DNA of 64,000 nucleotides from an uncultured Gammaproteobacteria bacterium (lineage in GTDB: Bacteria; Patescibacteriota; Microgenomatia; Levybacterales; GWA1-39-11): the NCBI GenBank assembly GCA_964511305.1, contig CAZEEU010000002.1, forward strand, positions 17,608 through 81,607, written 5' to 3'. Within the stretch, counting starts at the first letter, position 1. The number at the start of each line of letters is the position of its first letter. The notes below the pieces were generated by a model that ran no database searches, was not told the DNA's origin, and saw only the letters and a program-made list of their open reading frames with translations. Position numbers and translations under genes: made by a program. This document shows, piece after piece, positions 574 to 62,606 of this stretch.

Positions 574-715
574 AGATTCAAAAATTTTATTTTTCGATCT
601 TAGAAGCTGCGCTGCAAATCTATCCTAGATTTGAGCTACGCTATAGAAATTCAGAAGTTCTACTTTTATATTTGGGTCACCCCTCCCTACTAATCCTATG
701 GAGTTCGAGATCACG

Positions 716-2065
716 TTACATTCGTCCGATTTTTTTGGAGAATTCAATTATTCGGGGGTCTACCATCACGTCATTTGGATAAATCTTTTTAGTTACAACC
801 ATTCCCTCAAGGGTTCTACACCGACTCAAGGCAACATACGTTTGACCATGAGTAAAAGGAGACTTTGTAAAATCAATATTGGCTTTATTAAATGTCATAC
901 CCTGGCTTTTATGAATAGTTATAGCCCATGCAAGTTTTAGCGGATATTGCTTTAATGTACCTAGCACTACCGGAACAACGCTTTGAGCATCCTCATCATA
1001 TTCGTATTTGATATTTTCCCACTCTTCTATTGGAACTGTCACAATTTCATGAAATCCAGGGTCATCTAATCTTACTTTTATAGAATCTTTATCTAATGAC
1101 TCAACAAAACCTGAAGTCCCATTAACCCAACGACGAGCTTTATCGTTCTTTATGAAAATTACCCTCGCACCTTTCTTAAGTTTTAAATCTATTTCAATAG
1201 GCAGCGTTCTTTCCTCAGTCGGAAAATTTCCTTCGACCGTTGCGTTATATGTAAATAATGGACCATCAATTTTGTTAAGCTCTGAATCGTTGATGCCAGC
1301 AACTACACTATTAGTTGTTGCAAGAGTTATAAATTCTCGTCTCACTTTTTCGTAGTCCTTTACTACAACCCTATCATTTATAAGAGCCATGTCTTGCATT
1401 GATACGTCCCCAATTCTAATTTTGTTAAGAAGTGAAATATATTGCTCATCTTTTTGCCTAAAAATGTGTGTAAGCTCAATAACAGCAAATCCGGAATCCG
1501 AAAATGCATTTGCACTGAAAAAATATGGCGACTCAAAAAATTGGCTAAAAATATGTGCCTCTTCTCGAGCAACTATCGGAGGTAGCTGATACAGGTCCCC
1601 AACTACTATCATTTGTATTCCTCCAAATGGAAGATTTCTATCTTTACCGTTAATTCTTAAGAACCTATCTAGAGCATCAAAAAGATCAGCACGTACCATA
1701 GAAATTTCGTCAATAATAACTACGTCCAAGTCCTTATACACTCGAGAATTAGAATGCCTAAATTGCACGTGAGGATCTAAAAATCTCGGTGGAAGATGGA
1801 AAAAAGAATGAACTGTTTGGCCTTTTACATTAATTGCAGCAAGTCCGGTTGGCGCAAGAACAACAGTCTTTTTCTTTGTTGTATTTCTAAAGTATTCAAT
1901 AAGCGTTGATTTTCCAGTCCCAGCTTTTCCTGTAATAAAAAGATTGAGATGTGTATTTTCCATGCTCTCGATGCAGTCGAGAAATTCTTGACTCATCTCG
2001 AAGGATTCTTCATTCCCAGTAACTAAATCTTTTATTTTTTTAATAGTCGTTGTTATAGATGACAT
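716..2065 (-). CDS. PIF1/RecD-family ATP-dependent DNA helicase
   Basis: Walker A GKAGTGKST, Walker B VVIIDEISM, motif AITIHKSQG typical of the PIF1/RecD SF1B family. 449 aa. Confidence 0.8.
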   Translation of the reverse strand: MSSITTTIKKIKDLVTGNEESFEMSQEFLDCIESMENTHLNLFITGKAGTGKSTLIEYFRNTTKKKTVVLAPTGLAAINVKGQTVHSFFHLPPRFLDPHVQFRHSNSRVYKDLDVVIIDEISMVRADLFDALDRFLRINGKDRNLPFGGIQMIVVGDLYQLPPIVAREEAHIFSQFFESPYFFSANAFSDSGFAVIELTHIFRQKDEQYISLLNKIRIGDVSMQDMALINDRVVVKDYEKVRREFITLATTNSVVAGINDSELNKIDGPLFTYNATVEGNFPTEERTLPIEIDLKLKKGARVIFIKNDKARRWVNGTSGFVESLDKDSIKVRLDDPGFHEIVTVPIEEWENIKYEYDEDAQSVVPVVLGTLKQYPLKLAWAITIHKSQGMTFNKANIDFTKSPFTHGQTYVALSRCRTLEGMVVTKKIYPNDVMVDPRIIEFSKKIGRM

Positions 2066-8031: not shown

Positions 8032-8640
8032 ATGGAAAATGGTCAGAGGCCGCGTCTTGCGGAAATACCAAATGTTAGTATTCATGTATCTGAGAATCCC
8101 CATACACTCCCCTTGGTTAGAAAAACGTTAGGATTTATCGGGAAAACTTCTAGAATGATAGGGGAAGATTTTGTAGCAAGCTATTCTACTAATCGGGCGC
8201 AAGCAATTGGAAACCCCCATCCATCAAGTCTAGATTTCTTGATAAAAAGAAATCTCCATTTACCTCAATTTGGGGTTTTTGATGCATTAACAGCGGGTGT
8301 CTTTCTAAATGCTGCAGGCTTAGACCATCAGATTGAACCCGATAATCTTTTGTTGGTATTTCAATTCCCTCAATTAACTGCCCGCTGGAATAGACGTAAA
8401 TATGAAGAAGAAAAACCTGAAAATTCTGTTATTAATTGGGGGAAATTTAGCTACCCCTTTAAGAGAGTTGTTTGGAATAATGTAAAGCTTTATTCAGAAA
8501 AAAGTCAGGAACTCACTTTTGATAGAATAAATGGCGAAGGAGAACATGACAGTAGCCTGTATCATTATGTCTGGGAAGTTGCATTACCTGAAGAAAAAAA
8601 AGAATATTTAAGAAGAAGTGGATTTAACCCCTCAAAATAA
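8032..8640 (+). CDS. hypothetical protein
   Basis: ORF 7837..8640 trimmed to the internal ATG at 8032 (MENGQ...), to avoid a 160-nt out-of-frame overlap with the L,D-transpeptidase. No recognisable motif. Confidence 0.35.
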   Translation: MENGQRPRLAEIPNVSIHVSENPHTLPLVRKTLGFIGKTSRMIGEDFVASYSTNRAQAIGNPHPSSLDFLIKRNLHLPQFGVFDALTAGVFLNAAGLDHQIEPDNLLLVFQFPQLTARWNRRKYEEEKPENSVINWGKFSYPFKRVVWNNVKLYSEKSQELTFDRINGEGEHDSSLYHYVWEVALPEEKKEYLRRSGFNPSK

Positions 8641-8662
8641 TTTCCGTTAATTGTTAAGTGGT

Positions 8663-8696
8663 CCGGCACCCGCAGCTAAAAAGCCACGGGTGCCGG
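8663..8696. terminator. GC-rich hairpin between convergent genes (possible bidirectional terminator)
   Basis: Perfect 10-bp inverted repeat CCGGCACCCG (8663-8672) / CGGGTGCCGG (8687-8696) with a 14-nt A-rich loop. Sits between the stop at 8640 (+) and the stop at 8718 (-). Confidence 0.5.
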
Positions 8697-8717
8697 AAAG
8701 ATCTGCTGGGATGAGCG

Positions 8718-9692
8718 CTAACTCTTGCTCGCCTTCTTGTGGCCGAGCGCAAGTACGTAAGCGCCGATGATGGCACCAAACACCATGAAGGTCAATGCCC
8801 ATGCCTGTGTTTGGCTGACAAGCATGCCTGTCCCCGAACTTGGCGGGGCTGGCGGTTTCGACGGCGTTATTGCCGTCGGTGTCCGCGTAGGCGTAGACTG
8901 CACCTCGGTTGGCGGTGCAGTCGGAGCCAAGGTCGGCGCGACAGTAGGCGAAGCTGTCGGTGGTACCTGCGTACCAGTCGGCGTTGCCGAAGGAGTCGTC
9001 GTCGGTGACAAAGTCCCCGTCGGCGTAGCCGTCGGGGTCTTGGTTTTGGTCGGTGTAGGCGTTGGCTCGACCGTGGTCGGTATAGCCGTCGGCGACGGCG
9101 TCAGGACAATGGTCGGTGTTGGTGGAGGAACCGTTGGGGTGGGCGTTGGCGGCCTACAATTGGGGTTGGGGCGATTAAGCCCCTCACCACCTGCACCATC
9201 CTCGTGGTGTTTGGCCAGCTCTTCCAATCCATACTGGCCTCCGGGTCCGCTCGTCAGGATGCTTCTCGGCGAACTGCCGATATAGACATCGAACTGAACG
9301 AAGCAGACATCGTCGGGTACGGACAGGTAGACTTTGACCGTCTGGCCAGCCTTGATCGTAACAGGCCCGTTCTGGCCAGCGATGTGCTGGTCACACACTT
9401 GGACGCTTGCGCATCCGTGTGTATTGAAGGCCTGAAACGTAGCGTTGTCGCACGTTACCGTACTGTTGTTCGTGACGGCTGCTCCTCCGAACCCGATGGG
9501 CGCCCATGTGAAATTGGCACCCACGCATTCGGAGGGACTTGCACTTACCGTGCGAGGCTGCGGCACCACTGCCACCAATCCCGCGATGAACGCGGCGACC
9601 AGTGGGATCAGTAGTAGCCAAGAACGACCTGCGGGTTTTCTCAAAACCCAACCTCCTTGTCTCACCTTTCCGGCGAGGGCAAACGCAGGCAA
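8718..9692 (-). CDS. secreted/membrane-anchored protein with Cys-containing domain, long Pro/Thr linker and C-terminal TM helix, encoded in a high-GC island
   Basis: N-terminal hydrophobic helix, ~120-aa Cys-containing domain, ~110-aa (PT)n linker, C-terminal TM plus basic tail. The DNA is ~60-65% GC versus a mid-30s% background. Confidence 0.6.
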   Translation of the reverse strand: MPAFALAGKVRQGGWVLRKPAGRSWLLLIPLVAAFIAGLVAVVPQPRTVSASPSECVGANFTWAPIGFGGAAVTNNSTVTCDNATFQAFNTHGCASVQVCDQHIAGQNGPVTIKAGQTVKVYLSVPDDVCFVQFDVYIGSSPRSILTSGPGGQYGLEELAKHHEDGAGGEGLNRPNPNCRPPTPTPTVPPPTPTIVLTPSPTAIPTTVEPTPTPTKTKTPTATPTGTLSPTTTPSATPTGTQVPPTASPTVAPTLAPTAPPTEVQSTPTRTPTAITPSKPPAPPSSGTGMLVSQTQAWALTFMVFGAIIGAYVLALGHKKASKS

Positions 9693-9739
9693 AGTATTAC
9701 CTAAGTTTGTTCTCGCCGAAAAATAGCAGATTTTTAAAG

Positions 9740-9830
9740 AACTGCTAGTCCATATCCATAGCGCGCAAATTTGCTAAACGTAGTTAGCATTAAATGCTAA
9801 ACGCAGTAGCAAATTGCTATGGGATAGAAA
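9740..9830. promoter_or_regulatory. imperfect palindrome upstream of receiver gene (candidate operator)
   Basis: CCATAGCGCGCAAATTTGCTAAACG ... GCTAAACGCAGTAGCAAATTGCTATGG. The two halves are near reverse complements, and TGCTAAACG occurs twice as a direct repeat. Confidence 0.3.
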
Positions 9831-9906
9831 AGCAGTCAAATCATACCACAAAACGGTCAAAATTCAATTAAATTGACATAAAATTACGACAAATGTAATA
9901 TGAGTT

Positions 9907-10356
9907 ATGGGACTCTTTGATAGATTTAAATTCGGCTCACAAAATTCTCAACCATCAGCTCCCTCTCCTGCTGCTCCAGTTGGCCCAAAAATGAAAAAAG
10001 TACTTGTTGTTGAAGACGATGAAGCTCTTCGTGGATTATACGTGGAAGTACTAAAAGCCGAGCAATTAGATGTGATTTCTGCAGAAAATGGCCTTAAAGG
10101 CTTAGAAATTGCCCAAGCACAAAAGCCAGACGTCATTCTCTTGGACCTCATGATGCCTGTTATGGATGGCAAAACCATGCTTCGTACGCTTAGAGGACTT
10201 CCTGGATTTGAAAAACTACCGGTTATTATATTGACCAATGCAGGAGACATAGACTCCATTCGAGAAACAAAATTATTTGGAAATGCCAATGCATTTCTTA
10301 TAAAAGCAAATGTTACCCCTCAAGATATAGTCCAAAATATAAGAACCTACATTTAA
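9907..10356 (+). CDS. receiver-only (CheY-like) response regulator, paralog of 5481..5927
   Basis: Motifs KVLVVEDDEALR and VILLDLMMPVMDGKTML...AFLIKANVTPQD. The C-terminal half is near-identical in motif order to the 5481 protein. An alternative start is the MKKVLVV Met at 9991. Confidence 0.7.
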   Translation: MGLFDRFKFGSQNSQPSAPSPAAPVGPKMKKVLVVEDDEALRGLYVEVLKAEQLDVISAENGLKGLEIAQAQKPDVILLDLMMPVMDGKTMLRTLRGLPGFEKLPVIILTNAGDIDSIRETKLFGNANAFLIKANVTPQDIVQNIRTYI

Positions 10357-18018: not shown

Positions 18019-20151
18019 TCAAGTGGAGAGGTAGCATAATGCAGCAATCGCTGCCCCCTTAAGACAAGCGTTTTCCTTCATGTTTTTTGTGTATATAAGC
18101 TGAGATGAACCTTCTACATTTCGCGCCAAATATTGCTCCAACCTCTCTTTGTATCCTGCCACATTGAATACTCCACCATGGAAAACGACAGCTGTTTTTT
18201 GTGGGTTTTCAAATAATCCAAACGTGTTGCCAATACCTTTTACTACAATAGCAGTCATTCGCGCTGACTCATCGTAAAGAGTAATTGCCCTTGCATCTCC
18301 CTTTTGCGCCAATGTGTTAATTTCGTGTCCGCTAGCTCTTTCCCCACTTAATTTCTCGTACATTTTTTCTATACCCGCTTTTCCTGATGCCACCATTTCT
18401 ACGCACGGATTTTGATTTTCAAATACTCCGCATGGATCCGTAATTCCATGGACATTCAAATCTTCAGACAGGCTGATATGCCCTGGTTCTAAAGCTAGTA
18501 TTTTTCCCTGATGTAGTAATGCGCCACCAAATCCACTTCCAGATATTATATAGAGAACCGACTCAACCTCAGGGTATTTCGAAAGCGCCTCAATTGCTCC
18601 GGCTTTAAGTCCCGCAACAGCATCATTGTCAACCACAGGTTGAGCAAATAATTTAGCAAAATCACTTTGATACATTGCCTCAAATTCGTTCCCAAACTCT
18701 TGAACATTTGGACCCATATGAAGTACTGTTCCATTCAGTGGCCCCGCGACAGAAAGACCAACTTTAAGATTTTTATCAAGAGCTTTACTTGCAACATCTT
18801 CCAAAAATTGAAGGTAACCTTTTCCATAGTCTCCTTTATTCATCATAATCTCACTAGAAGTAATTACTTTCCCGTCATCTACTGCAAAAATTTGAGCTGC
18901 AATTTTGTCTCCACCCAAATCTATTGCATATACCTGCTTACCATTTGAATCCAATAAATCTTTTTGCACTTTACGAACATCAAATTCGCTAAGCTCTTTT
19001 ATGTGAAGAGCATCTCTAGATATTAGATTTAACTGTGAATCGGAAAAAGGTAGAAGGTCAGGGCTCGTTAGATATTCATTTTCTTCGACAACCATACTTT
19101 GGCCACGCTCCATCTCATAAAGAGCAACTATAAAAAGAGATTCAGACCAGCCTAATGGCGTATTATCGTTATAATCAGGAGAGTTTGAAAAATATAACTC
19201 AGGAATTCCACTTGAAGTATCTGCAGCAATAAGATCCTTTATATATTCAAAAGCTTTTTCCTTCTCTCCCCTTTTTTGATAAATAATGGAGAGCCATGCA
19301 AGACCAAAAGTCCACTCGGCCTCTTCACTTACAGTATCCACGTTCTTATTGTAATAGGCATCCCCTTTATATCGAATAACTCCCCGCTCTCGCAAAAGGT
19401 GGTATTCAACATTAGTCAGTATCTCCTCTGTTTCTTCAGGTGTTGTTACGTTGTATGGCCAAATAAGTGAAAGTAGGGATAAATCTACAAACTTTCTAGC
19501 GGATTCTCGGGGCAATAAATCTCGCAACGCCTGCTTCCCATTCTCAATTAGCTCTTTTGGCACAGTAATTTTTTCAAGCCTATTGATCGACTCAAGACCT
19601 GCAACGCATGCACCGACAGAGGACGCATGAAGCTCCTCATCCTCTTCCCACATTCCGCTATCTCGATCTTTCCAATACTCGATTGCACCAAGATACTTTA
19701 CGAGCTTATTAACTATCCTAACATGGTCTTCGTCCTTAAGTATTACTCTCTTGTGATGCTTCTCAAGCTCTCCAATTCTAAAAAGAATGCATCCAATTGC
19801 GTCATTCTGCTTATTACCCCACGACTCCCAAAATTCATCAAATGTAGTTGGGTGGAATCGTGCATGGATATACTGATACGATTCTGTTGGTTTATTTTCG
19901 ATAGCCCAATCGATTTTTGCTTCATGCTTTACAAGTATTTCAAGAATTGCAGCGTATGTATTTTCAACAGTTGCCCAATCATTAATTACCTCAAAGGCAA
20001 TAGTCTCGTAGAAATTATCACGAAGCCAGGACTTGTCATAACCGGTACTTACCGTACGATCTGCTGCAGCAAAAAGCCCAGAATCATACTGAAGGGATCT
20101 TAAAATCTCCAAATGTTTGTCTATTAGTTGTTGATAGGAAAGACGAGCCAT
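18019..20151 (-). CDS. fusion protein: GH15-like (glucoamylase/glucodextranase-type) (alpha/alpha)6 domain plus C-terminal ROK-family sugar kinase
   Basis: N-terminal ~360 aa: SGLFAAADRTVSTGYDKSWLRDNFYE matches the GH15 'sGl.As.s....Y.y.W.RD' signature and six-hairpin pattern. C-terminal ~330 aa: ROK motifs LGGDKIAAQIF, ISGSGFGGALL, Zn-motif DPCGVFENQNPCVEMVASG. Confidence 0.6.
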   Translation of the reverse strand: MARLSYQQLIDKHLEILRSLQYDSGLFAAADRTVSTGYDKSWLRDNFYETIAFEVINDWATVENTYAAILEILVKHEAKIDWAIENKPTESYQYIHARFHPTTFDEFWESWGNKQNDAIGCILFRIGELEKHHKRVILKDEDHVRIVNKLVKYLGAIEYWKDRDSGMWEEDEELHASSVGACVAGLESINRLEKITVPKELIENGKQALRDLLPRESARKFVDLSLLSLIWPYNVTTPEETEEILTNVEYHLLRERGVIRYKGDAYYNKNVDTVSEEAEWTFGLAWLSIIYQKRGEKEKAFEYIKDLIAADTSSGIPELYFSNSPDYNDNTPLGWSESLFIVALYEMERGQSMVVEENEYLTSPDLLPFSDSQLNLISRDALHIKELSEFDVRKVQKDLLDSNGKQVYAIDLGGDKIAAQIFAVDDGKVITSSEIMMNKGDYGKGYLQFLEDVASKALDKNLKVGLSVAGPLNGTVLHMGPNVQEFGNEFEAMYQSDFAKLFAQPVVDNDAVAGLKAGAIEALSKYPEVESVLYIISGSGFGGALLHQGKILALEPGHISLSEDLNVHGITDPCGVFENQNPCVEMVASGKAGIEKMYEKLSGERASGHEINTLAQKGDARAITLYDESARMTAIVVKGIGNTFGLFENPQKTAVVFHGGVFNVAGYKERLEQYLARNVEGSSQLIYTKNMKENACLKGAAIAALCYLST

Positions 20152-41523: not shown

Positions 41524-43830
41524 ATGTCCGAACCATTAGCACCCGGAGGTGTTGCTGTTGCAGAAGCTCCACAGGCAGTAGTACCCACAACAGAAAACGT
41601 CTTAGATCAAGCTGTTGCTGTAGCTGAGCAAGCTGGCGGAGCAAGTCTAACCGGTTCTGCTGCACCAGCTATAGAAAATCCACCACTTGGAGGAATAAGT
41701 AATGTACTTCCTGGTGGAGATATGAGCTCGACAGAAGACCCCGGCAAGATTGCTGCGCAAAAAGCAGGTGAAGTTGCTGCAACGCAGGCAGCCGCGGGAA
41801 ATGAAAAAAAAGGCGGACTCTTCAGTTCTCTTGCCAAACTAAATCCCTTTAAAACGGAAATTGTTGATAGAGCAACTGCTGACGCTGCGCCTCCTCCAAA
41901 ACCTGCAGAAGTTACTCCTGGCTTAGGATTTGCCCCTGGTGAGCCAAAAATTGCAAAAATTGATGTTCCAGTTGGAGCTAATCAAGAACTAGCAGCGGGG
42001 ACCACTCCACCTGTACTTAGAGTTACAGAAGAAGCTCAAGCTGCAGAAGCAAGTGCAAATAAAGTTCTTGGCGGGAATTCACAGCTTCCAGACGCACCTG
42101 TTGAAACACCACCTGCTACTGGTTCGCTTGATGCTGCTATGGATGAGATCCACAAAACAGCTGAAGAAGCATGGAACAAGCCAGAAACATCTGCAGAACC
42201 TGCTCCCGCTGTAGATAGCGCTGTTGCCTCACCTACAGAGGTTACCGCACCAATAGCCGAAGCATCCGTTGTTCCAACAACTGTTGAAGCACCAAAGACC
42301 GCTGCCCCAGTTGAATCATTACTAGCTGCAGCTGCTCAAGAAACTGATGTCGCTGCTGATGCAGCTGCACATCCTGAAATAGTGGACTATGACAAAAATG
42401 TTGCAGCAACTGCAGGTGAAGCAGAAGATGCCGCAAATGCAGCAAAAAATGAAGCACCAAATCTTGATCCTCTTGCCGTAACAGGAACTGAGGCAAGCGC
42501 GGCGCCAGACGTTCCTGCATATACTCCTCCCCTTGATGGTCTTCCAAGTGCAGAAGTTACAGCCTCAGCCCTGCCAGATGCACAAACATCAACGCCAGAT
42601 CCTCTTGCCGTAACCACAGAGCCAGAACAAGCAATGCCTCAAGCAGTACCAGATGTTCTTTCACAAGCAGCAGACGTTGCTGCAAATGCTGAAGCAACAG
42701 GCGGACCACTCCCATCAGACGGTGCAGTAGCTCCTGCAGTCGAGAGTCCAATTCTTGCTCAAGCAAATGAAGTTGTAGCAAATGCTCAAGCATCAAGTAG
42801 TATTGCAGAGCCAAGCACTATCGGATCACAAGAACCAACAGCTCCTACGGATACTCTTTCACAAGCAGCAGACGTTGCTGCAAATGCTGAAGCAACAGGC
42901 GGACCACTCCCATCAGACGGAGCAGCAGCTCTTACAATTGAAAATCCAGTTCTTGCACAAGCAAATGAAGTTGTTGCAAACGCTGAGGCTGTCGGAGGTG
43001 CACTACCGACTGAGAATTCAGCAGATTCAGGTAATACTCCAATTGAAGCAATTGCTTCCCCACTTCCTAACGCGAATGCTACAAACGAAAATCAATGGAG
43101 TGCCTCCAACTTAACAGGAGTAACATCGGCGGAAACATCAAGCATAGCTGCATCCAGTGAGCAAACCGCAGCAACTCCTGCAACAGCCGTAATTCAGTCA
43201 TTAGAAACTATGCCCAAAGCAAACCCTATTCAAGTTCAGGCACCAGATGGCACAACACTTCCTGCAGCACCTGAAATAACCCCAGCAGAACCAGTTGCAC
43301 CAGCTGTAGTTGAAACAGTCACTACACCTACACCATCTGCAGTACCTGAAACAGTAGATTCTCCAGCCAATGAACAATCCAGCAATTTAACACCGTTCCC
43401 AGCGGCAACTCTACCAACAGAAGCATCTAGTACTTCTCCTGAAATAGCAGCTGATCTAAATACAACTACAACAATTGGAGCTGATGCAAGCGTTGAAGAA
43501 GCACCTTCAGCCTCTGTATTGCCAGATAATATGTCTGCCCTTCCTGGTGTAACTCCAGAAGCACAAACACAAGAACAAATTACCGCGGCACAAAGCGGGA
43601 TAGCACCAACATTAATAAATACAGAAGCTCCTTCAGCCACACTTGGTACCGCAACTCCAGATAATTTACTCGCCTTCCCAGGAGCAACAGCTGAAGCACA
43701 ATCACCTCAGCAAATTGCAACGGCACAAAGCGGAACACCATTAAGTACTGTCGACACCGGGCCTACAGCACCAGCTGAGGATACAAATTCAGGAACAGGA
43801 ACTCCAACTGCACCACCCATCGCCGCATAA
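41524..43830 (+). CDS. 768-aa Ala/Pro/Thr/Glu-rich low-complexity protein with internal repeats
   Basis: No TM or signal peptide. Repeated blocks LSQAADVAANAEATGGPLPSDGA (x2), NPVLAQANEVVANA (x2), DPLAVT (x3). Acidic throughout. Confidence 0.5.
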   Translation: MSEPLAPGGVAVAEAPQAVVPTTENVLDQAVAVAEQAGGASLTGSAAPAIENPPLGGISNVLPGGDMSSTEDPGKIAAQKAGEVAATQAAAGNEKKGGLFSSLAKLNPFKTEIVDRATADAAPPPKPAEVTPGLGFAPGEPKIAKIDVPVGANQELAAGTTPPVLRVTEEAQAAEASANKVLGGNSQLPDAPVETPPATGSLDAAMDEIHKTAEEAWNKPETSAEPAPAVDSAVASPTEVTAPIAEASVVPTTVEAPKTAAPVESLLAAAAQETDVAADAAAHPEIVDYDKNVAATAGEAEDAANAAKNEAPNLDPLAVTGTEASAAPDVPAYTPPLDGLPSAEVTASALPDAQTSTPDPLAVTTEPEQAMPQAVPDVLSQAADVAANAEATGGPLPSDGAVAPAVESPILAQANEVVANAQASSSIAEPSTIGSQEPTAPTDTLSQAADVAANAEATGGPLPSDGAAALTIENPVLAQANEVVANAEAVGGALPTENSADSGNTPIEAIASPLPNANATNENQWSASNLTGVTSAETSSIAASSEQTAATPATAVIQSLETMPKANPIQVQAPDGTTLPAAPEITPAEPVAPAVVETVTTPTPSAVPETVDSPANEQSSNLTPFPAATLPTEASSTSPEIAADLNTTTTIGADASVEEAPSASVLPDNMSALPGVTPEAQTQEQITAAQSGIAPTLINTEAPSATLGTATPDNLLAFPGATAEAQSPQQIATAQSGTPLSTVDTGPTAPAEDTNSGTGTPTAPPIAA

Positions 43831-43847
43831 CCTTATTCAACTGCCCA

Positions 43848-43965
43848 ACGGGTGACACGTCGAAGGGGCTCCATCGAGAAAATTTCACAAGCGAACAATG
43901 TTACTAAATTAGTAGAGTGGGTGAATATTTTCGAAAATGGGGATTTAGACGTGGCAGGACCCGTA
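43848..43965. repeat. ~120-bp TIR-bounded intergenic element, copy 2
   Basis: The first 47 nt are identical to copy 1 (ACGGGTGACACGTCGAAGGGGCTCCATCGAGAAAATTTCACAAGCGA). The last 53 nt differ at 4 positions. The central ~20 nt is divergent. Confidence 0.6.
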
Positions 43966-43969
43966 ACAC

Positions 43970-50323: not shown

Positions 50324-52015
50324 ATGAAATTATTAACAAAAATTAAAAAATTGCTGTTTTTCACCAGCATTTTAATCTTTGCATTATCTGGTCTGAGTTT
50401 TGTAGTATCCCCTAGACCAATAATTCCTGTTGCTCAAGCGGCGTGCCTAATTCCACCTCCAGTGTGCGTCCTTAATTTTTGCGTTGATTCTCCGTTGTGT
50501 GCTCTTGACACGGGTGATCTGAAAGATGCTGGTAAAGTTGCACTTTCACTTGCCGGAAAGGGATTCGGAGAAATTGATGATGTTCTTGCAAAAGTCGCTT
50601 CGCACGGCGGTGACGCTTGTTCAGTTGTTGTTAAACTAGCATCTGAACTTTCACCTGTTGATTTTGATAAGTTGGTTAAAAAATATGGGTGTGATAATAT
50701 TCCAGGTGGTGGTGGCGGTAGTAGTAGCGGTGGTGGCCAAGATGGATTTACCGGGTGTGAAACACCTATTATGACTGAGCGCGGTAGAGACTTCTGCGAA
50801 AGCTTCAGTAGCCATCAATGCTTTTGGTACTCAGGCTATTCCAGCGAATCTCCTAGTTGTAGAACAAATAGTGAAAATATGGATCCCAATCAATTGTGCC
50901 GAGATGGTGGGCATTGCTATATTGGACAGACTTGTCAGCCAGGCAATTATTGTTCATCTACTCCAGAGAGTCCATCAACCAGCCCAGCACCGACCAGTGG
51001 TGGTGGCTCGAGTGGAGGTACAGACACATGCACAGAGGTAGACAGAACAAAAGGTTTTGAGTGGAAATGTATGGATGGCTGCTCCGGGGGGTTCGATGAT
51101 ACCAAGAAGACGAATACTACACCGTTTCACCAATGCACTGCGGGACTAACCTGCTGCGTCAAAAAGACTGTGGCGATTGGCTCTGGCACAGGGACCGGTA
51201 CTGGAAGCACAACTCCTGCTCCAACACCAGCAACGCCAACTGAAATTGGATATTGCGGAGACTCTGTTCCAACATTAGGCACTTTGAAGCCAGTCAATGG
51301 GGCAACATGCGCAACCACTTCAACTGGTAATTTAAGATGGATAAAAAGGAGCACTGATTCATCAGGTTATGATAAATACTGTGATCGTCTAACCGGCCAA
51401 CAACAAGTATACTTCTACGAATGCGCTTCTGGCACGAGTGGTGGTGGATCAACAACACCAACTCCAACTACGACAGCTTCCCCTACCCCAACAACCTTTG
51501 TACCTATTTCTCAAGGTGGTGTGTGCAATCCCGTGCAAGGCCCATGGCAATGTCAGTCACCAAATGTATGTCTTACTGTCCCAGGTGAGGGTAGATGCTG
51601 CCCCGCAGGTACTCAATGGATAAATAATCAGTGCGTAACCCCCACTTCTACTCCAGCACCTACAACAACCCAGACACCTACTAACCCTACACCAATTTCA
51701 ACAGGAAGTACATGCAACGACTATATTCCAGCATCAAATATCCACCAAGTATGTAGAACTGGTGTAAATTCATGTATCGGCACCGAGGTTCAAAATACAG
51801 ATGGAAATAAAGCCTGTTCTGATTTCTACCAAAATACATCAACTTGCTGTCAATTACCTCCAAGCGCGGGACCAGCTGGAGGTTCATGTAATCTACCAGG
51901 AAGAACATGCAATCCTAGCTCAAATACTTCAACAGGAACAAATATTGCATGCACTGGATGCGGAGGATACTGCGTAGGATCAGGCACAACAGGATCCTGC
52001 CAAAATCCCTATTAA
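50324..52015 (+). CDS. large secreted Cys-rich modular protein (Gly/Ser/Thr linkers; 'YCGDS' module)
   Basis: Signal/TM N-terminus, more than 40 Cys in repeated modules separated by GGGSS/TGTGTG/PT linkers. The module IGYCGDSVPTLG recurs in the 56946 protein. Confidence 0.5.
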   Translation: MKLLTKIKKLLFFTSILIFALSGLSFVVSPRPIIPVAQAACLIPPPVCVLNFCVDSPLCALDTGDLKDAGKVALSLAGKGFGEIDDVLAKVASHGGDACSVVVKLASELSPVDFDKLVKKYGCDNIPGGGGGSSSGGGQDGFTGCETPIMTERGRDFCESFSSHQCFWYSGYSSESPSCRTNSENMDPNQLCRDGGHCYIGQTCQPGNYCSSTPESPSTSPAPTSGGGSSGGTDTCTEVDRTKGFEWKCMDGCSGGFDDTKKTNTTPFHQCTAGLTCCVKKTVAIGSGTGTGTGSTTPAPTPATPTEIGYCGDSVPTLGTLKPVNGATCATTSTGNLRWIKRSTDSSGYDKYCDRLTGQQQVYFYECASGTSGGGSTTPTPTTTASPTPTTFVPISQGGVCNPVQGPWQCQSPNVCLTVPGEGRCCPAGTQWINNQCVTPTSTPAPTTTQTPTNPTPISTGSTCNDYIPASNIHQVCRTGVNSCIGTEVQNTDGNKACSDFYQNTSTCCQLPPSAGPAGGSCNLPGRTCNPSSNTSTGTNIACTGCGGYCVGSGTTGSCQNPY

Positions 52016-52023
52016 GATTAAAC

Positions 52024-52668
52024 ATGGAAGAACAACTGCCCACAATACAACAGAGCCCAGAACAACCAAAAAAATCTGGAAATAAAAAGCTTCTCCTTTC
52101 TCTTGGGGGGATTGTTTTAATTTTAGCTATTATTCTTGTTACTTTCTTTGCACTCAAATCAACTTCAATAAAAGAAGAAAAGATAGCACCAAGCTCTGAA
52201 AGCCTTACAAATCCACTAAATATACAAGCTCTGCTAGGTTTTTCTACATTTAACTTGACGGCGGTTGATAAAAGATCCGAAACCGTTGACGTGACACTAG
52301 GAACAACAACTACGGCTGGTATTTCAGGTGGAACTATTGTTATCACCTATGACCCCTTTATGACAAATGACCTAAAGGTAAAACCAATAATTGGATCTAC
52401 CTCTCTTCTTCCAAACGCTATTTTCTCCGAGGTCAAATATAATCCCAACAATATAGTTATCACATTTTCTCTTCCCGAAGGATCTAATCCAGTTACGGGA
52501 TCGGGGAGAATTGCAGCTCTTACCTTTACACCTGTAGCTTACAATAAAACGGATAGATCTACTATATCTTTTGATCTAAAGCGCTCAGAGCTCTATACAA
52601 TAGAAAACGGACAGAAAAAAATATTAAGAGCTTCCCGAGCTGATCTTGATATAAAAATTCAGCCATAA
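52024..52668 (+). CDS. membrane-anchored cohesin-like domain protein
   Basis: TM anchor then a ~150-aa domain: TVDVTLGTTTTAGISGGTIVITYDPFMTNDLKV...GSGRIAALTFTPVAYNKTDRSTISF, matching the cohesin pattern (aG.q..l.YDp.vL ... G..a.itF). Start at the internal ATG 52024. Confidence 0.5.
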   Translation: MEEQLPTIQQSPEQPKKSGNKKLLLSLGGIVLILAIILVTFFALKSTSIKEEKIAPSSESLTNPLNIQALLGFSTFNLTAVDKRSETVDVTLGTTTTAGISGGTIVITYDPFMTNDLKVKPIIGSTSLLPNAIFSEVKYNPNNIVITFSLPEGSNPVTGSGRIAALTFTPVAYNKTDRSTISFDLKRSELYTIENGQKKILRASRADLDIKIQP

Positions 52669-55846: not shown

Positions 55847-56959
55847 ATGGTAAAAATTATTCCTCGAATTCTCTTTCTCATTGTAAGCCTTTTTTTTATA
55901 ATCCCTATGAATTTACAAATAAATGCATCAAACGAAAATTCTAAAATAGACACAAATAAAACTTTGGCTTTTATCCCAGGTACAGACAAACTACCAGATA
56001 GCTATATATGGACACAGAATTCATCACCTTGCTCAGCAGGTGAAGCTTATTGTTATCAAGACACAACAGGAAATTACCAACATGGAATCGAAAATACTCA
56101 AAACAATGATTTACCCCCGGCAGATCAATCAGTTAACGATAATCCAAATGGGAACACCAGTCGCAAATCTGGATATGGAGGGGATTGTACAATATTTGGC
56201 GGTTGCGTGAATGAAGGGGTATGCGAACTCACAGACATTGGAGGCATTAACGGTCAATGTGTTGCGCCCAGAACAGCACAGCCAACTAGTTGCAATAGTC
56301 AGAGTGGCCGGGCAAATGGATGCAACTGCGAACAATCAAATAACACTCAATGCGCAAGTCAATATTGTGGTGGACCATATCGAGTAGAAGATGTCTATCG
56401 CAGGGGAAGCCCAAAAACTATCGGCACCTGTCAATCGTCAACGGTGTCTGGTCCATCCGTAACACCTGGCCCTTCAAGTCAGCCTCTTGTATGCGGAATT
56501 ATTGGAGATCCTAATGCAGACGGGATGATTACTGACGCAGATGCCTTATTTGTAGGAAGAATGATGGCTGGCCTTGAAACATCAACTCCCGACAGGATAG
56601 CAAGAGCAGATGTTAATAATGACGCTATTGTAGACAGCAAAGATCAATTAGAAATAAGAAAATATGTTACAAAATTAATTACAACTTTTCGTGCTTGCAA
56701 TAGTTCTAACCCTCCCCAAGTCTTATGTCCTCCTGAGACGACAAATCCCAATACAACACTCAAGAACAAAGGGGATGCAAATTGCAGCGGTACAATAACA
56801 ATTCAAGACTACAATTTATGGCGGGATGAATTCATTGCTAAAGAAGCCAATACAACCAACAGAACAAAGTACGCTGATTTTAATGGTGGGGATGTTACGA
56901 TTTCTGACTATAATATATGGAGAGATAATTTTATAGCTACAAATAATGGAACAAACTAA
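55847..56959 (+). CDS. secreted Cys-rich protein carrying two tandem dockerin-like modules
   Basis: Signal peptide. Dockerin-type Ca-loop pairs GDPNADGMITDAD / ADVNNDAIVDSKD and GDANCSGTITIQD / ADFNGGDVTISD, each followed by a hydrophobic helix (classic D-x-N-x-D-G-x-I-x-x-x-D repeats). Confidence 0.6.
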   Translation: MVKIIPRILFLIVSLFFIIPMNLQINASNENSKIDTNKTLAFIPGTDKLPDSYIWTQNSSPCSAGEAYCYQDTTGNYQHGIENTQNNDLPPADQSVNDNPNGNTSRKSGYGGDCTIFGGCVNEGVCELTDIGGINGQCVAPRTAQPTSCNSQSGRANGCNCEQSNNTQCASQYCGGPYRVEDVYRRGSPKTIGTCQSSTVSGPSVTPGPSSQPLVCGIIGDPNADGMITDADALFVGRMMAGLETSTPDRIARADVNNDAIVDSKDQLEIRKYVTKLITTFRACNSSNPPQVLCPPETTNPNTTLKNKGDANCSGTITIQDYNLWRDEFIAKEANTTNRTKYADFNGGDVTISDYNIWRDNFIATNNGTN

Positions 56960-59042
56960 CAACCCAATCATCCAGTATATTAAGACTCTAAAAAGAAAAC
57001 AGATTTTTATGGCAATTGGTGGTTTAATTGTAGCTGGTGCTCTTGTCACAACGTTATATCTCGTAAAACAATCCCAGGACTTAAGACAACGGGCTTCTGG
57101 AGAAGAAGTTATACTCTCATATTCCCCTTCTCAAATACAATTAGCACAGCATACAGAAACTGCAATTGAGCTTAAAGCCAGAACCATAGCAGCAAATGTG
57201 AATGTTACAGCAATCCAAACGACTGTAAAGTTTGATCAAGATAAAGTCGAGCTCGTGAGATACGAAGACGGTAACAGATCGGCACTACTAACACCTCTTC
57301 AAACTCCGTCACCAAATAATGCAGCAGGTACCATGAGCGTTACCTTCCTGCGACCAACGGCAGACGCAACTGTTCTTAGTGGAGACATCAATCTTGGTCG
57401 GCTAATATTTAAATCTAAAGGAACTATCGGAGTAACTGACATCACGGCAATTAACTCTTTAGTTACTAAGTCTGGATCCTACACTGACATAACGCCGGGA
57501 GTTGAAGTATCCAGTCTCACTGTTTCGTCAAATACATCTGTTACAGTTACGACAGCACCAAGCGGAACAACCGCCCCCTCTCCTTCTCCAAATACTCAGC
57601 CGACAGGCTCACAGGTATATTGTGGAGATTCTAGTCATGTTGGTTGCACGGTTGGACTTTATTCCTGCTACGTTAACCTAGGCAATAATGTAGGCAAGAC
57701 ATGTACAGATGTGTCTGGCAGTAACGGCACATACAATTGCGTTAAATGCGCATATGTCACTCCATCGCCAACGGTATCCCCTAGCACAACCCCTGTACCA
57801 AGAGTTCCTGAATGTGGAGTTTCAACTATTCCACCTACGATAGGAGCTGCCCCACTCAAAGTAGCTTTACATGGTTCTGGAAAGTCAAATGCACTGGGAG
57901 TAGGAATTGCAGGATATGAATGGGATTTTGATGGAAATGGAACATGGGATTCTCCTGTCCAACTTGATTACATAGAACATATTTATACTGTTAATGGTAC
58001 ATATAGACCTAAATTCAGAATTAAGGGTCAAAATGGTAAATACAGTGAGACTTGCACTTACGGATATGAGGTGCTGGTTGGACCCATCTCAACAAATCCC
58101 AACTATGACGTGACCATTATTCCGCCAGCCAATCTTCAACCATCAGGCAATATAGATTCTGGAAGCCGAAATATAACATGGACAGCTTCAGCAAAAGCTG
58201 AGGGAGGTTACTATCTGAGAGTTAATGAGGATGGAATAGATACTACAACTTGGAACGCACCTAGTTGTGATTCGAATACAAATTTAAGAACCGGCGATAT
58301 TTGCGAAACAATTAACACAACCAGCTACTCTTATACATTTAAGCCTGGAAAGAATTACTTTGTATGGGTTCACAGTCGAGCAACTAATGGTAAATACGGT
58401 GAGCCAGTTGCCGCCACTGTAGTCACGCGTGCTGGTTCCGAGCCAACAACTTCACCCACATTAACGCCTACGGCAACTATATTTCCTACTGCAACTCTTG
58501 CACCAAATGATACAGCTATAAATGTGAACATTGCACTTCCTGGTATAGGCACTGGGGCTGAAAATCTGGGACTTAATGCAACCCCAATACACCCACAAAG
58601 AACTGCAACGCTTAAGCTATACGACAATACGAGTGCAAATATTAAAACAGTCGATGCTATCATGACCTACGTGCCACAGTCATCATCCTACTTTGGCCAA
58701 TTCCCATTGGGCACCACATTCCCAACAGGAGTGTATACTGCAAAAATTAAGGTCAACAATGCTCTCTATCGAAGCCTTGTAGGATCAATGCAAATTACAG
58801 GCGGCGTAGCAAATGCGTCTACTATATGGACAGGAACTCCAAGGAATCTTATTAGCGGAGATCTAAATAATGATAATACTCTTGGTATTATTGACTGGAC
58901 CTATATGATAGCTTGCGTAAAGAATGAGGCAGCTTGCACATCCGCAATAAGAGGTCTTGCAGACCTTAACGATAATGGAAGTGTTGACGAGATAGATGTT
59001 CAGATATTACAACGCGGGTTTGCATTACGTGACGGAGACTAA
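56946..59042 (+). CDS. membrane-anchored multidomain surface protein: cohesin-like + Cys-rich 'YCGDS' module + PKD + FN3-like + C-terminal dockerin
   Basis: TM anchor. Cohesin-like segment (TTVKFDQDKVELV...GRLIFKSKGTIGVTDI). PKD motif (GYEWDFDGNGTWDS...HIYTVNGTYRPKFRIKGQNG). Dockerin loops GDLNNDNTLGIID / ADLNDNGSVDEID at the C-terminus. Confidence 0.6.
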   Translation: MEQTNNPIIQYIKTLKRKQIFMAIGGLIVAGALVTTLYLVKQSQDLRQRASGEEVILSYSPSQIQLAQHTETAIELKARTIAANVNVTAIQTTVKFDQDKVELVRYEDGNRSALLTPLQTPSPNNAAGTMSVTFLRPTADATVLSGDINLGRLIFKSKGTIGVTDITAINSLVTKSGSYTDITPGVEVSSLTVSSNTSVTVTTAPSGTTAPSPSPNTQPTGSQVYCGDSSHVGCTVGLYSCYVNLGNNVGKTCTDVSGSNGTYNCVKCAYVTPSPTVSPSTTPVPRVPECGVSTIPPTIGAAPLKVALHGSGKSNALGVGIAGYEWDFDGNGTWDSPVQLDYIEHIYTVNGTYRPKFRIKGQNGKYSETCTYGYEVLVGPISTNPNYDVTIIPPANLQPSGNIDSGSRNITWTASAKAEGGYYLRVNEDGIDTTTWNAPSCDSNTNLRTGDICETINTTSYSYTFKPGKNYFVWVHSRATNGKYGEPVAATVVTRAGSEPTTSPTLTPTATIFPTATLAPNDTAINVNIALPGIGTGAENLGLNATPIHPQRTATLKLYDNTSANIKTVDAIMTYVPQSSSYFGQFPLGTTFPTGVYTAKIKVNNALYRSLVGSMQITGGVANASTIWTGTPRNLISGDLNNDNTLGIIDWTYMIACVKNEAACTSAIRGLADLNDNGSVDEIDVQILQRGFALRDGD

Positions 59043-59124: not shown

Positions 59125-59745
59125 TTGATTCGAATAATACTGCCTAACATGCCTAAAAAAACGACAATACTAATAGTGATTCTTGCTCTAGTTACAGGAG
59201 TTCTTATTTTCCTTGCGGTACGATCGGATCAAGGACAAAATTTACTCTCGACTGATCAGGGAGAAGCTACCCCTACCCAAGTGCAACCATTTGCAAGCTT
59301 GTCATTTGAGAACCCACTTCTTGATGCTTCAACCGGCCCGACAACACAATCGGTAAATATTGTAATTGATACTCTGGGTAAACCTGCCGCAGGAGCACAA
59401 ATAGAGCTTTCATATAATCCTGCTGTGCTAACGAATGTGAGCGTTAAGACTCCCCAGACGTCTTTCTTTGGAGCAAACCCGAGTGTGCTTATAAATACTG
59501 TTGATCCTACTCAGGGAAGAATCTCTTACGCTGTAGGGATATCTGCATCAGATGCAGAGAAGTCTGGAAATGGTACCTTAGCAACCATAACTTTCACAGT
59601 AAATAGACTCGCTGGTATTGCAACTACTAATCTAACCTTTCTTCCTAAATCTGCTGTAACAACACTGAGTGCTCAGGGGTCAATTCTCAACACCTCAACT
59701 CCCCTTGAGATACGCCTTACACCTCTTCCAACATCTGCCAATTAA
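59125..59745 (+). CDS. membrane-anchored cohesin-domain protein
   Basis: TM anchor then TQSVNIVIDTLGKPAAGAQIELSYNPAVLTNVSV...GNGTLATITFTVNRLAGIATTNLTF, the best cohesin-like match in the window. Confidence 0.6.
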   Translation: MIRIILPNMPKKTTILIVILALVTGVLIFLAVRSDQGQNLLSTDQGEATPTQVQPFASLSFENPLLDASTGPTTQSVNIVIDTLGKPAAGAQIELSYNPAVLTNVSVKTPQTSFFGANPSVLINTVDPTQGRISYAVGISASDAEKSGNGTLATITFTVNRLAGIATTNLTFLPKSAVTTLSAQGSILNTSTPLEIRLTPLPTSAN

Positions 59746-60147: not shown

Positions 60148-60510
60148 ATGGCAGACATACCACAAAATTCATTTCAAGGACCTTTGGCTCCAAAATATGG
60201 ATTAAATGACAATTTCAGAAATCCGATTCCGGCTGGACCCAAAGTTAATATTCCAAAAAACAGAAATTACGGGCGACTTATACCGGTGGGCGCAGTTGCA
60301 CTTGCGCTTCTTATTCTTCCTTTAACTATCCAGCAGCTTGGCCAGCAACAAGATAATAGACAGCAAGCATCTCAACCAACTCCTACAATATCGCTACCTG
60401 CCCAGGTGACTTCCCCGACATCAACCCCGACACCTATAGGCCTTACTCCAACACCAACCTCTACAGTAGAATTAGTACCACCACTTCAAGCAACTTCTTC
60501 CGGGAATTAA
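60148..60510 (+). CDS. small membrane-anchored Pro/Thr-rich protein, hypothetical
   Basis: Central TM helix then a PT-rich tail (SPTSTPTPIGLTPTPTSTV). Confidence 0.35.
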   Translation: MADIPQNSFQGPLAPKYGLNDNFRNPIPAGPKVNIPKNRNYGRLIPVGAVALALLILPLTIQQLGQQQDNRQQASQPTPTISLPAQVTSPTSTPTPIGLTPTPTSTVELVPPLQATSSGN

Positions 60511-61550: not shown

Positions 61551-62606
61551 GTGAACAAAAAAATAATCTTAATTGCCTTAATAGTGCTTGTTCTTATAGG
61601 TGTTGTCGTCACAACTCTTCTTATTAGACAAAACCAGGACAATAGACAGCGAGCTGATGAAGGAACTCCTACGACAACACAAGGTCCTACTCTCGACACA
61701 GAAGAATGGAATTTCGTTAGGATTTTGAACGAACATAGGCAAGAAATAGGACACAATCCACTTAAAGTGTCCCAAAAATTAACACTAGCAGCTAGATGGA
61801 TGTCAACAGACATGGCAGCAAGAAATATATTGCCCGCTGATCATTCAGATTCGCTTGGCAGGCAATTCCAAAACAGAATAAGATCATTTGGCTACAACGC
61901 CGTACCTATTGGAGAAAATATAGCAAAAGTTGGTGCAACCGGTCAAAACGCATTTGATGCTTGGCTCGCCTCAACAATGGGGCATAAAGAAGAAATGGAA
62001 AGCCCTGCAAGAAGTGTTATTGGTATTGCTAGAGTTCAAAGTGGAAATAGCTGGTATTGGACTGCAGACTTCGGGCCATCGTTAGACTCCGAAATTACTC
62101 CAACGACAACTCCATCTATTACTGATAGCCCTACCCCATCAACAACAGTATCTCCTACATTATCAGTTACTACAACCCAAGAGCCCACAATAACTGCCTC
62201 ACCAACAACTGTAATAGTAACCCCTTCTAATACGGTAACTCCTACGTTGACCGCAACTTCGACACCCACGTCTACAGCAACGCCAACACCAACTTCGACT
62301 CCTACCGCAACTCCTACCCCAACGCCTAGTCCAACAAAAGTACCAACAAGCACACCAACTCCTACATCCAAACCAACTGCTACTCCCACAGCTACGTCCA
62401 TTCCAACTGTGCCTCCAACGGCAACTCCAACAATCCTACCAACTGTAATTGCTCATATATCACCAACCCCTACACAATTGCCGCCTATTGCAACGAGCAC
62501 TCCAGTACCATCCATAGCACAACCAGGAGGACTCGTACCTACTCTGGGTATATTTGGTGGAATTTTGGTCGTGATCGTTGCTGGAATATTCTTGTTAGCA
62601 CTTTAG
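61551..62606 (+). CDS. membrane-anchored CAP (SCP/PR-1-like, YkwD-type) domain protein with long Pro/Thr linker and C-terminal TM
   Basis: N-terminal TM. CAP-domain motifs (LNEHR...G..PL, HK..M, SWYWTADFG). ~130-aa (PT/ST)n linker. C-terminal hydrophobic helix. Confidence 0.7.
   Translation: MNKKIILIALIVLVLIGVVVTTLLIRQNQDNRQRADEGTPTTTQGPTLDTEEWNFVRILNEHRQEIGHNPLKVSQKLTLAARWMSTDMAARNILPADHSDSLGRQFQNRIRSFGYNAVPIGENIAKVGATGQNAFDAWLASTMGHKEEMESPARSVIGIARVQSGNSWYWTADFGPSLDSEITPTTTPSITDSPTPSTTVSPTLSVTTTQEPTITASPTTVIVTPSNTVTPTLTATSTPTSTATPTPTSTPTATPTPTPSPTKVPTSTPTPTSKPTATPTATSIPTVPPTATPTILPTVIAHISPTPTQLPPIATSTPVPSIAQPGGLVPTLGIFGGILVVIVAGIFLLAL

Follow-up and report, generated by a model that had tools for sequence, protein, structure and literature searches.

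A cohesin- and X-Doc-bearing protein with an N-terminal membrane helix as candidate adaptor scaffoldin of a CPR/Patescibacteria-type bacterium

The subject of this analysis is a single gene, at 56946..59042 of a 64,000-nucleotide stretch of contig CAZEEU010000002.1 (here called the window, to which all coordinates refer unless a locus is named), together with the genes that surround it. Its product carries a hydrophobic helix at the N-terminus, a cohesin next to it, and at the C-terminus a dockerin that is immediately preceded by an immunoglobulin (Ig)-like X module, a pair referred to below as X-Doc; Cys-rich, PKD and fn3-like modules lie in between. The gene overlaps that of a secreted dockerin-bearing protein at its upstream end and is followed by a gene for a small, transmembrane (TM)-anchored cohesin. 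What follows describes these components, the protein family to which they lead and the grounds for regarding the protein as a candidate adaptor scaffoldin, that is, as a link between a membrane-anchored cohesin and dockerin-bearing cargo. The host belongs to the broad group of ultra-small bacteria that go by the name of Candidate Phyla Radiation (CPR) or Patescibacteria.

The gene and its integrity

The open reading frame (ORF) begins with ATG, as the earlier note on this DNA had placed it, and its translation contains the peptides on which that note relied (GDLNNDNTLGIID, ADLNDNGSVDEID, YEWDFDGNGTWDS and HIYTVNGTYRPKF). The 14-nt overlap that had been noticed between its start and the upstream dockerin gene is real: the stop codon of that gene, TAA, lies at 56957-56959 and the ATG at 56946. 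In the syntenic locus L001 the corresponding overlap is 20 nt. A scan of the window for promoters and terminators returned counts that are not above those of shuffled sequence (36 vs 31.8 and 13 vs 12.4), so that operon structure is argued here from the overlap and from synteny alone. The earlier note had conceded that a frameshift or a chimeric assembly would undo its reading. The gene is neither, because the same full-length architecture recurs at 98% identity (P0001, with 12 member sequences on 40 contigs), at 88% identity (P0002, on a 353-kb contig) and at 84% identity (L001, where the neighbouring genes are also the same as in the window). The coordinates of the gene, its modules and the neighbouring genes that enter the argument are collected in Table 1.

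Table 1. Features of the locus (window coordinates; residues are those of the respective protein)
Feature	Coordinates	Strand	Description	Basis
Gene under study	56946..59042	+	698 aa; TM helix/cohesin/Cys-rich/PKD/fn3-like/X module/dockerin; adaptor-scaffoldin-like (putative)	ORF, Pfam, AF2, full-length homologues
N-terminal hydrophobic helix	57003..57065	+	aa 20-40, K/R-rich stretch before it; N-in signal anchor or uncleaved-looking signal	sequence, AF2 helix 17-48
Juxtamembrane motif KQSQDLRQRA	57066..57095	+	aa 41-50; family consensus QQ[DE]xRQ[RQH]A	
Cohesin module, C2 class	57096..57545	+	aa 51-200	
Six-cysteine module	57612..57755	+	aa 223-270; kept in P0003 and P0030	AF2 pLDDT about 38
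PKD domain	57813..58085	+	aa 290-380; WDFDGNG hallmark (YEWDFDGNG)	PKD_4 below gathering score; pLDDT 84-97
fn3-like beta module	58086..58439	+	aa 381-498; inserted loop with two invariant Cys	alignment A6
Ig-like X module, LPGIG motif	58506..58835	+	aa 521-630; aligns, with the dockerin, to CipA X-DocII	alignment A1; pLDDT mostly 86-96
Dockerin	58851..59039	+	aa 636-698; calcium-loop motifs 639-650 and 673-684; invariant Cys657/Cys664; C-terminal RDGD	
Small TM-anchored cohesin, C3 class	59149..59745	+	candidate X-Doc anchor	Pfam Cohesin 36.5 bits; conserved adjacency
120-aa protein (p120)	60148..60510	+	cytoplasmic MADIPxNSFQGPLAPK segment, TM helix, QQQDNRQQA, Pro/Thr tail; follows C3 gene	
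Small TM-anchored cohesin, C1 class	52024..52668	+	23-31% identical to C3	Pfam Cohesin 26 bits; jackhmmer cross-detection with C3
Upstream secreted Cys-rich protein	55847..56959	+	canonical dockerin aa 220-274, W-rich DocB aa 301-368; candidate cargo for the cohesin of the protein under study	

Modules of the protein

The domain inventory drawn up in the earlier note is right in outline. The hidden Markov model (HMM) searches that it proposed recover the four domains named there, cohesin (aa 83-186, 28.0 bits; PF00963) and dockerin (Dockerin_1, aa 638-690, 25.6 bits; PF00404) above their gathering scores of 24.1 and 22.9, and PKD (PKD_4, aa 298-369, 20.4 bits, E 5.6e-4) and fn3 (aa 393-487, 16.9 bits in the full protein) below theirs, which are 27 and 25, respectively. 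Structure prediction sorts the modules in much the same way: cohesin and dockerin pass on fold as well as on Pfam score, the PKD domain is well supported, and the fn3-like and Cys-rich modules are weak. AlphaFold2 (AF2) with a 118-sequence alignment (A2) reaches a mean predicted local distance difference test (pLDDT) score of 74.9; the single-sequence prediction (pLDDT 36.8) is unusable. Confidence is high for the TM helix (17-48), the cohesin (51-200, block means about 74-97), the PKD domain (290-380, 84-97), the Ig-like module (520-625, mostly 86-96) and a three-helix dockerin (635-698, 92-98), and low for the Cys-rich segment (204-282, about 38) and the fn3-like segment (382-500, 35-64).

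Residues 51-200 take up the nine-stranded jelly-roll fold of cohesins; a search of the PDB with the sequence of this cohesin alone gave no match. The six-cysteine module finds no family in the Pfam scan. The PKD domain combines its HMM match, which scores under the gathering threshold, with a WDFGDG-type motif and an Ig-like beta sandwich, and it matches the PKD domain of ColH (4jgu_A, E 3.9e-5); proteins with PKD repeats are numerous among the sequence-library matches. The module at 381-498 is putatively, and weakly, fn3-like. Scanned on its own it reaches 23.1 bits (E 8.9e-5) with Pfam fn3, still short of the gathering score; 8 of 11 homologous modules match fn3 at E up to 1, and its profile yields matches in the PDB that are not significant. 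The Pfam scan detects no carbohydrate-binding module (CBM) anywhere in the protein.

The C-terminal end is the best-defined part of the chain. Beyond its HMM match, the dockerin has the duplicated 12-residue calcium loop with Asp or Asn at positions 1, 3, 5 and 12 (DLNNDNTLGIID at residue 639 and DLNDNGSVDEID at 673), each loop being followed by a helix; the predicted helices span 648-658, 666-672 and 682-693, at pLDDT 92-98. The Ig-like X module sits directly N-terminal to it, and the two form a C-terminal rigid unit of the kind that characterizes type II-like X-Doc dyads. The dyad aligns to the X-DocII of CipA and superposes on bona fide cohesin-binding X-Doc. At the other end of the chain, the N-terminal hydrophobic helix exports or anchors the protein. 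There are, accordingly, at least one cohesin and a dockerin on one secreted chain, which is the arrangement of adaptor scaffoldins.

The X-Doc family

When 1.84 billion representatives were searched exhaustively, there were 2156 matches at E up to 1e-3. Among the proteins retrieved, 96 have in common only their last ~200 residues, made up of a Pro/Thr linker, the Ig-like module with its LPGIG motif, the dockerin and a terminal RxGD; in 92 of these 96 library proteins the X-Doc module is C-terminal, ending at most 5 residues from the end of the chain. Narrower searches with X-Doc alone or with its profile found 1 and 13 proteins, respectively, words from the Pro/Thr linker being suspected of dominating the candidates. 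Five residues of the dockerin (D650, C657, C664, D673 and D684) are invariant across the 97 family sequences. When a profile of 33 C-terminal modules (alignment A1) is compared with the PDB, the five best matches are all X-Doc type II dyads: 2b59_B leads at E 6.8e-10, followed by 3kcp_A, 5g5d_B, 4wi0_B and 4u3s_B. The alignments with these five begin in the last strands of the X module and extend across the dockerin, and the matches that come next are isolated dockerins and weaker.

What is carried in front of the X-Doc varies. The passengers of the 97 members include Cohesin (24 of 97 by Pfam), VWA, CAP (fused to X-Doc in two members), SdrD_B, PKD, CBM_4_9 (one member) and peptidase M64. By iterative jackhmmer searching, 54 of 94 members have an N-terminal cohesin (at residues 45-200 or thereabouts), some of them two or three, a fraction that is inflated by the ranking of the representatives by similarity to the full-length query; one-step phmmer with the cohesin of the window finds it in 3 of 96 members, an underestimate owing to divergence. 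Since 24 of 97 and 54 of 94 members carry a cohesin by these two counts, the presence of cohesin and X-Doc on one chain is, as judged from the sequences, a common architecture of the family and no peculiarity of the protein described here. The family is large and barely studied, and resides in ultra-small, CPR-like bacteria; some of its members are labelled Daviesbacteria or Saccharimonadales. The low GC content of the window and contig names such as Hain-H51-01um (metagenome loci L091 and L105), read here as groundwater filtered at 0.1 um, likewise suggest CPR/Patescibacteria.

A conserved X-Doc/cohesin gene pair

The gene that follows directly on the X-Doc gene codes for a cohesin of the class designated C3. 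In the ORF list its start is placed at TTG 59125; the conserved start among orthologues (MPKKTT) is the ATG at 59149. The protein, 190-210 aa long among loci, is no more than a cohesin joined to an N-terminal TM helix by a linker of ~30 residues. Together with the gene at 52024, this is one of the two further cohesin genes claimed in the earlier note; both are borne out by Pfam and jackhmmer. The 59149 protein has neither the surface-layer homology (SLH) repeats nor the LPXTG sortase signal that mark anchoring scaffoldins of the SdbA/OlpB type. It is nevertheless a candidate anchor, one that would work through an attachment different from SLH repeats or sortase.

The succession of an X-Doc gene and a small TM-cohesin gene occurs in six genome loci: in the window, L001, L003 and L079, and twice in L080. 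To avoid circularity, a metagenome scan was seeded with the C3 cohesin alone (A5). It yielded 18 C3-class loci (L088-L105), two of which have less than 150 nt of upstream sequence and were left out of the pairing count. In 15 of the 16 assessable loci the C3 gene is preceded, on its own strand, by an X-Doc module whose end lies 12-190 nt upstream; L096 and L097 are apparently the same sequence, which makes it 14 of 15 distinct loci. The pairing does not depend on what else the X-Doc protein carries: the paired protein has a cohesin of its own in the window, L001, L079, L089 and L096, and has none in L080 (twice), L091, L095, L102 and L103 (twice). Nor does it depend on context, for the pair is kept in L095, L099, L101 and L103, where the flanking genes have no homologue in the window, and in the rearranged surroundings of L102.

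At L080 (9986..14474) the pair is present as a tandem duplicate, P0006 followed by Coh212 and P0007 followed by Coh188. The X-Doc paralogues are 47% identical and the C3 paralogues 46%, which suggests that the pair was duplicated as a unit and that its two halves then diverged together.

A third gene, for the protein p120, follows C3 in the window and in L001 (12878..13243), L003 (1275..1604), L079 (13256..13612) and L080 (14478..14864), as well as in L088, L089, L090 and L092, giving a triad of X-Doc, C3 cohesin and p120. Its recurrence makes p120 a possible third component of the system.

This conserved pairing bears on the suggestion that the protein is simply a stand-alone adhesin, the modules of which are unpaired, with a calcium-binding dockerin and beta-sandwich domains that bind glycans of host cells or matrix. 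Dockerins outside cellulosomes are widespread and lack known partners (Peer et al. 2009, as cited in PMC9012536), and a dockerin-bearing envelope protein is essential in the saccharibacterium Southlakia, where its authors speculate about the targeting of host glycans (PMC10633639). Against that stand the gene pair itself, maintained across divergent contexts, the clustering of three cohesins and three dockerins within 8 kb of the window, and the superposition of the dyad on X-Doc modules that do bind cohesins. A free-standing adhesin is accordingly regarded as rather improbable.

Cohesin classes, a second dockerin and its cargo

The cohesins of the window fall into three classes. C1, encoded at some distance upstream, is detected from C3 and C3 from C1; a first jackhmmer search, which covered an initial, small set of loci, did not link the cohesin of the X-Doc protein (C2) to them, and deeper iteration over a larger set links all three as cohesins. 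C2 diverges even at orthologous positions, with about 25% identity between the window and L079, against 50-55% for C3. The longest ORF call for C1 starts at 51949 and overlaps the upstream gene; M26, at 52024, is the likelier start.

The dockerins, too, are of more than one type. The earlier note had seen a double-dockerin gene just upstream of the X-Doc gene, and two dockerin-like modules are indeed found in the Cys-rich 55847 protein: Pfam Dockerin_1 matches two stretches of it (44.9 bits), and the second module, called DocB, is recognized by its own HMM at E 1.1e-35. The corresponding upstream protein in L001 keeps only the DocB. In L079 three further proteins carry DocB, one of them with an HExxH motif and another with a C2 cohesin (8624..9988), and cohesin and DocB also share a chain in P0039, P0041 and P0151. 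The HExxH protein (L079 13833..15539) has a very weak peptidase match (Peptidase_M66, E 0.074).

DocB lies directly upstream of a cohesin-bearing X-Doc gene in 4 of 5 loci and upstream of a cohesin-less one in 0 of 7 (one-sided Fisher p = 0.010, uncorrected for relatedness of the loci). In the fifth locus, L096, the gene directly upstream of a two-cohesin X-Doc gene (3..1142) codes for a subtilase (Peptidase_S8, E 3e-44) with a C-terminal segment that, judged by eye, resembles a divergent DocB. This distribution makes DocB a putative ligand of the C2 cohesin, on thin evidence. The association of DocB with a subtilase and an HExxH protein implies that the cargo may include proteases rather than glycosidases.

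The nature of the cargo bears on the notion of a true cellulosome for polysaccharide degradation, as has been proposed for a metagenome-assembled genome of the Microgenomates: Bell et al. read the expressed cohesin and dockerin proteins of Ca. Shapirobacterales in that way (bioRxiv 10.1101/2021.08.21.457207). The CBM_4_9 of the one family member mentioned above and a weak GH53 match near L079 point in the same direction. However, no dockerin-bearing glycoside hydrolase (GH) and no scaffoldin CBM was detected in the window or in the fetched loci. Among the ORFs of the window dockerins are found only on the 55847 and 56946 proteins, and the GH15-ROK protein has none; the dockerin-bearing enzymes of the relatives are the subtilase and the HExxH protein, not glycoside hydrolases; and the other passengers of the family (VWA, CAP, SdrD_B, PKD and M64) do not make a degradative machinery likely either. 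From the window and the fetched loci, a polysaccharide-degrading cellulosome is thus very improbable. The GH15-ROK protein is a 710-aa fusion of a GH15 glucoamylase-like part and a ROK-family sugar kinase, encoded on the minus strand at 18019..20151.

A membrane-anchored adaptor

These observations are best accommodated, with somewhat better than an even chance of being right, by a surface display system of the CPR/Patescibacteria-type host that is cellulosome-like but not cellulolytic and in which the X-Doc protein acts as a monovalent adaptor scaffoldin. While modules, folds, family and gene pairing are matters of observation, each binding step below, like the fate of the N-terminus, is what we infer from them. 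The C3 cohesin protein with its TM helix would constitute the first tier, the membrane anchor. The X-Doc protein would dock on the C3 cohesin through its X-Doc dyad and so be fixed to the cell surface; the strong difference between the two helices of its dockerin is suggestive of one binding mode only, like that of type II dockerins. In a third tier its divergent C2 cohesin would recruit DocB cargo, here the Cys-rich 55847 protein and in relatives the subtilase and the HExxH protease-like protein. The Cys-rich, PKD and fn3-like modules and the Pro/Thr linkers would serve as spacers or adhesive elements that hold the cargo off the membrane. Known adaptor and primary scaffoldins are defined by a cohesin and a dockerin on one chain that have different specificities (PMC4959524). 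Here such a difference is suggested by the distinct cohesin classes, the pairing of X-Doc with C3 and the placement of DocB upstream of those X-Doc genes that encode a cohesin.

The earlier note had proposed that a protein with both modules might either bridge scaffolds, which comes close to the adaptor favoured here, or polymerize head to tail as a building block of a stalk or fibre, the dockerin of one copy binding the cohesin of the next; a surface network might arise in the same way. The homopolymer has something to commend it. Both modules are on one chain, the architecture recurs by either count given above, some members have two or three cohesins, proteins that combine cohesin and DocB make adaptor chains conceivable, and archaeal cohesin and dockerin modules have been verified to bond specifically (work cited in PMC9012536). 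Yet it is not supported. The dockerin sits in an X-Doc dyad whose conserved genomic partner is the C3 gene, and adjacency to C3 is equally the rule for the many X-Doc proteins that lack a cohesin of their own; the protein's own cohesin belongs to a separate class, far more divergent than C3, which co-occurs with a second type of dockerin upstream; on characterized scaffoldins the cohesin and the dockerin of one chain differ in specificity (PMC4959524); and the N-terminal membrane helix is more easily reconciled with an adaptor bound to the cell than with a free fibre. A head-to-tail polymer is therefore judged improbable.

Several points weigh against the adaptor as well. One C3 locus, L100, has no X-Doc upstream, with 449 nt of upstream sequence available. 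Pairing was also checked for four distant X-Doc genes (P0176, P0179, P0180 and P0181): the distant X-Doc loci L084-L087 have no cohesin within 8 kb, and in L082 and L083 cohesin-bearing genes lie two or three genes downstream of X-Doc, so that adjacency belongs to a C3-linked subgroup and not to the family as a whole. Ten distant cohesin loci (L106-L115), 27-32% identical to C3 and consisting mostly of tandem genes, are without X-Doc; they are treated here as a separate cohesin class, by a cut against L088-L105 that was drawn post hoc. The assignment of C2 to DocB rests on few loci, which are phylogenetically related. The profile of C3 and C1 finds type II and type I cohesins mixed in the PDB, at non-significant E values of 0.1-1.5. 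A helix between strands 6 and 7 and beta-flaps are reportedly the hallmarks of type II cohesins. Finally, both proposed partners have an N-terminal membrane helix, and an adaptor that is not cleaved at its juxtamembrane motif would be tethered at both ends.

The juxtamembrane motif

That last difficulty draws attention to the lineage-specific motif QQ[DE]xRQ[RQH]A, which follows the hydrophobic helix (often with ..LP/IP..) almost universally in X-Doc proteins and also occurs on DocB proteins. Outside the window it is seen at L079 6190, 8624 and 13833 and in L080, L089, L091, L095, L102 and L103. Among the 97 family members its consensus is QDxRQRA, and A50 is at least 90% conserved. Other secreted proteins of the window have it too, namely a CAP-domain protein (aa 25-34) and p120 (aa 64-74), and none of the C3 anchors examined has it. 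Neither Pfam nor NCBIfam has a model that matches it. A dedicated signal for sorting or cleavage is one possibility.

In the AF2 model the TM helix simply runs on through the motif. Neither this nor the Gln at -3 resembles a classical signal-peptidase site. If the helix stays uncleaved, the protein would form a doubly tethered arch, held by its own anchor and by a C3 cohesin, either of the same cell, as a surface loop, or of a sister cell, in homotypic adhesion. The N-terminal helices of both partners agree with such an arch; however, the presence of the motif on docking proteins and its absence from anchors is the pattern expected of a processing or sorting signal. Double tethering is on balance unlikely.

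A more far-reaching proposal, of which we are doubtful, is that X-Doc, the small TM-cohesin and the QQDxRQRA signal make up a lineage-specific sorting and display pathway of CPR bacteria. A dedicated protease would free motif-bearing proteins from their N-terminal helix, and the C3 cohesin, possibly together with p120, would re-attach them non-covalently. In function such a pathway would correspond to anchoring by sortase or SLH repeats, and the adhesins and proteases on display would serve the bacterium in attaching to host cells or feeding on them.

The CAP-domain protein of the window (61551..62606; PF00188) has the signal in the form QNQDNRQRA; after it come a long region rich in Pro and Thr and, at the C-terminus, a hydrophobic helix.

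Relation to known systems

The closest known system is that of Clostridium (Acetivibrio) thermocellum, in which the C-terminal Coh9-X-DocII of CipA meets the anchor SdbA (PDB 2b59, 3kcp, 4fl4, 5g5d). The protein described here likewise ends in a dyad of X module and dockerin, of the type with which primary scaffoldins attach to anchoring scaffoldins. In other respects the two differ: there is one cohesin here and nine in CipA, there is no CBM3, the dockerin has an invariant Cys pair, and the N-terminus bears a membrane helix with the QQDxRQRA motif. The inferred anchor has a single N-terminal TM helix in place of the SLH repeats of SdbA, the putative cargo does not consist of glycoside hydrolases and the host is CPR-like, not a clostridium. 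In concept the nearest relatives are monovalent adaptor scaffoldins such as ScaC of Ruminococcus flavefaciens (PMC4959524). ScaC lacks the X module, the PKD, fn3 and Cys-rich spacers and the membrane helix, and the specificities proposed for the present protein are putative.

Cohesin and dockerin proteins outside cellulosomes, scaffoldin-like chains included, are also on record for Archaeoglobus fulgidus and anaerobic methanotrophic (ANME) archaea. These belong to another domain of life, and the part of the account available here describes neither an X-Doc dyad nor an X-Doc/TM-cohesin gene pair in them (PMC9012536). The same broad lineage as the present host offers two precedents, the expressed proteins of Ca. 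Shapirobacterales (bioRxiv 10.1101/2021.08.21.457207) and the essential SEML1_0315 of Southlakia (PMC10633639). Those reports list domains only and take them to indicate a cellulosome or the binding of glycans; they do not analyse architecture, the X-Doc dyad, the two types of dockerin or the pairing with an anchor. What appears to be distinctive of the present system is the combination of anchoring by a membrane helix, the Cys pair of the dockerin, the W-rich second dockerin, a probably non-glycosidase cargo, the N-terminal motif and the X-Doc/TM-cohesin gene pair.

The way in which CPR/Patescibacteria build their surfaces and attach to hosts is largely obscure, and genetic data are few; adhesion-type envelope proteins, one with a dockerin among them, are essential for the epibiotic lifestyle (PMC10633639). 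The locus offers a concrete wiring diagram, from anchor cohesin to X-Doc adaptor to DocB cargo, in which binding would be easy to assay in vitro. It also indicates that cellulolytic Firmicutes are not the only carriers of the scaffoldin-type X-Doc dyad, which goes here with membrane anchoring and with a cargo that is probably non-glycosidase (Cys-rich proteins and, in relatives, a subtilase and the HExxH protease-like protein). Designer protein assemblies would, moreover, find useful parts in orthogonal cohesin-dockerin pairs of such lineages.

Other features of the window

The C1 gene follows an ORF (50324..52015) for a 563-aa secreted and very Cys-rich protein in which no dockerin is detectable. 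Against a background GC content of about 0.38, two islands of about 0.48-0.49 stand out, at 8001-10000 and 42001-44000. The ORFs located there (8718..9692 on the minus strand and 41524..43830 on the plus strand, the latter for an Ala/Val-rich protein of 768 aa) have no Pfam match, and the two islands may be foreign DNA.

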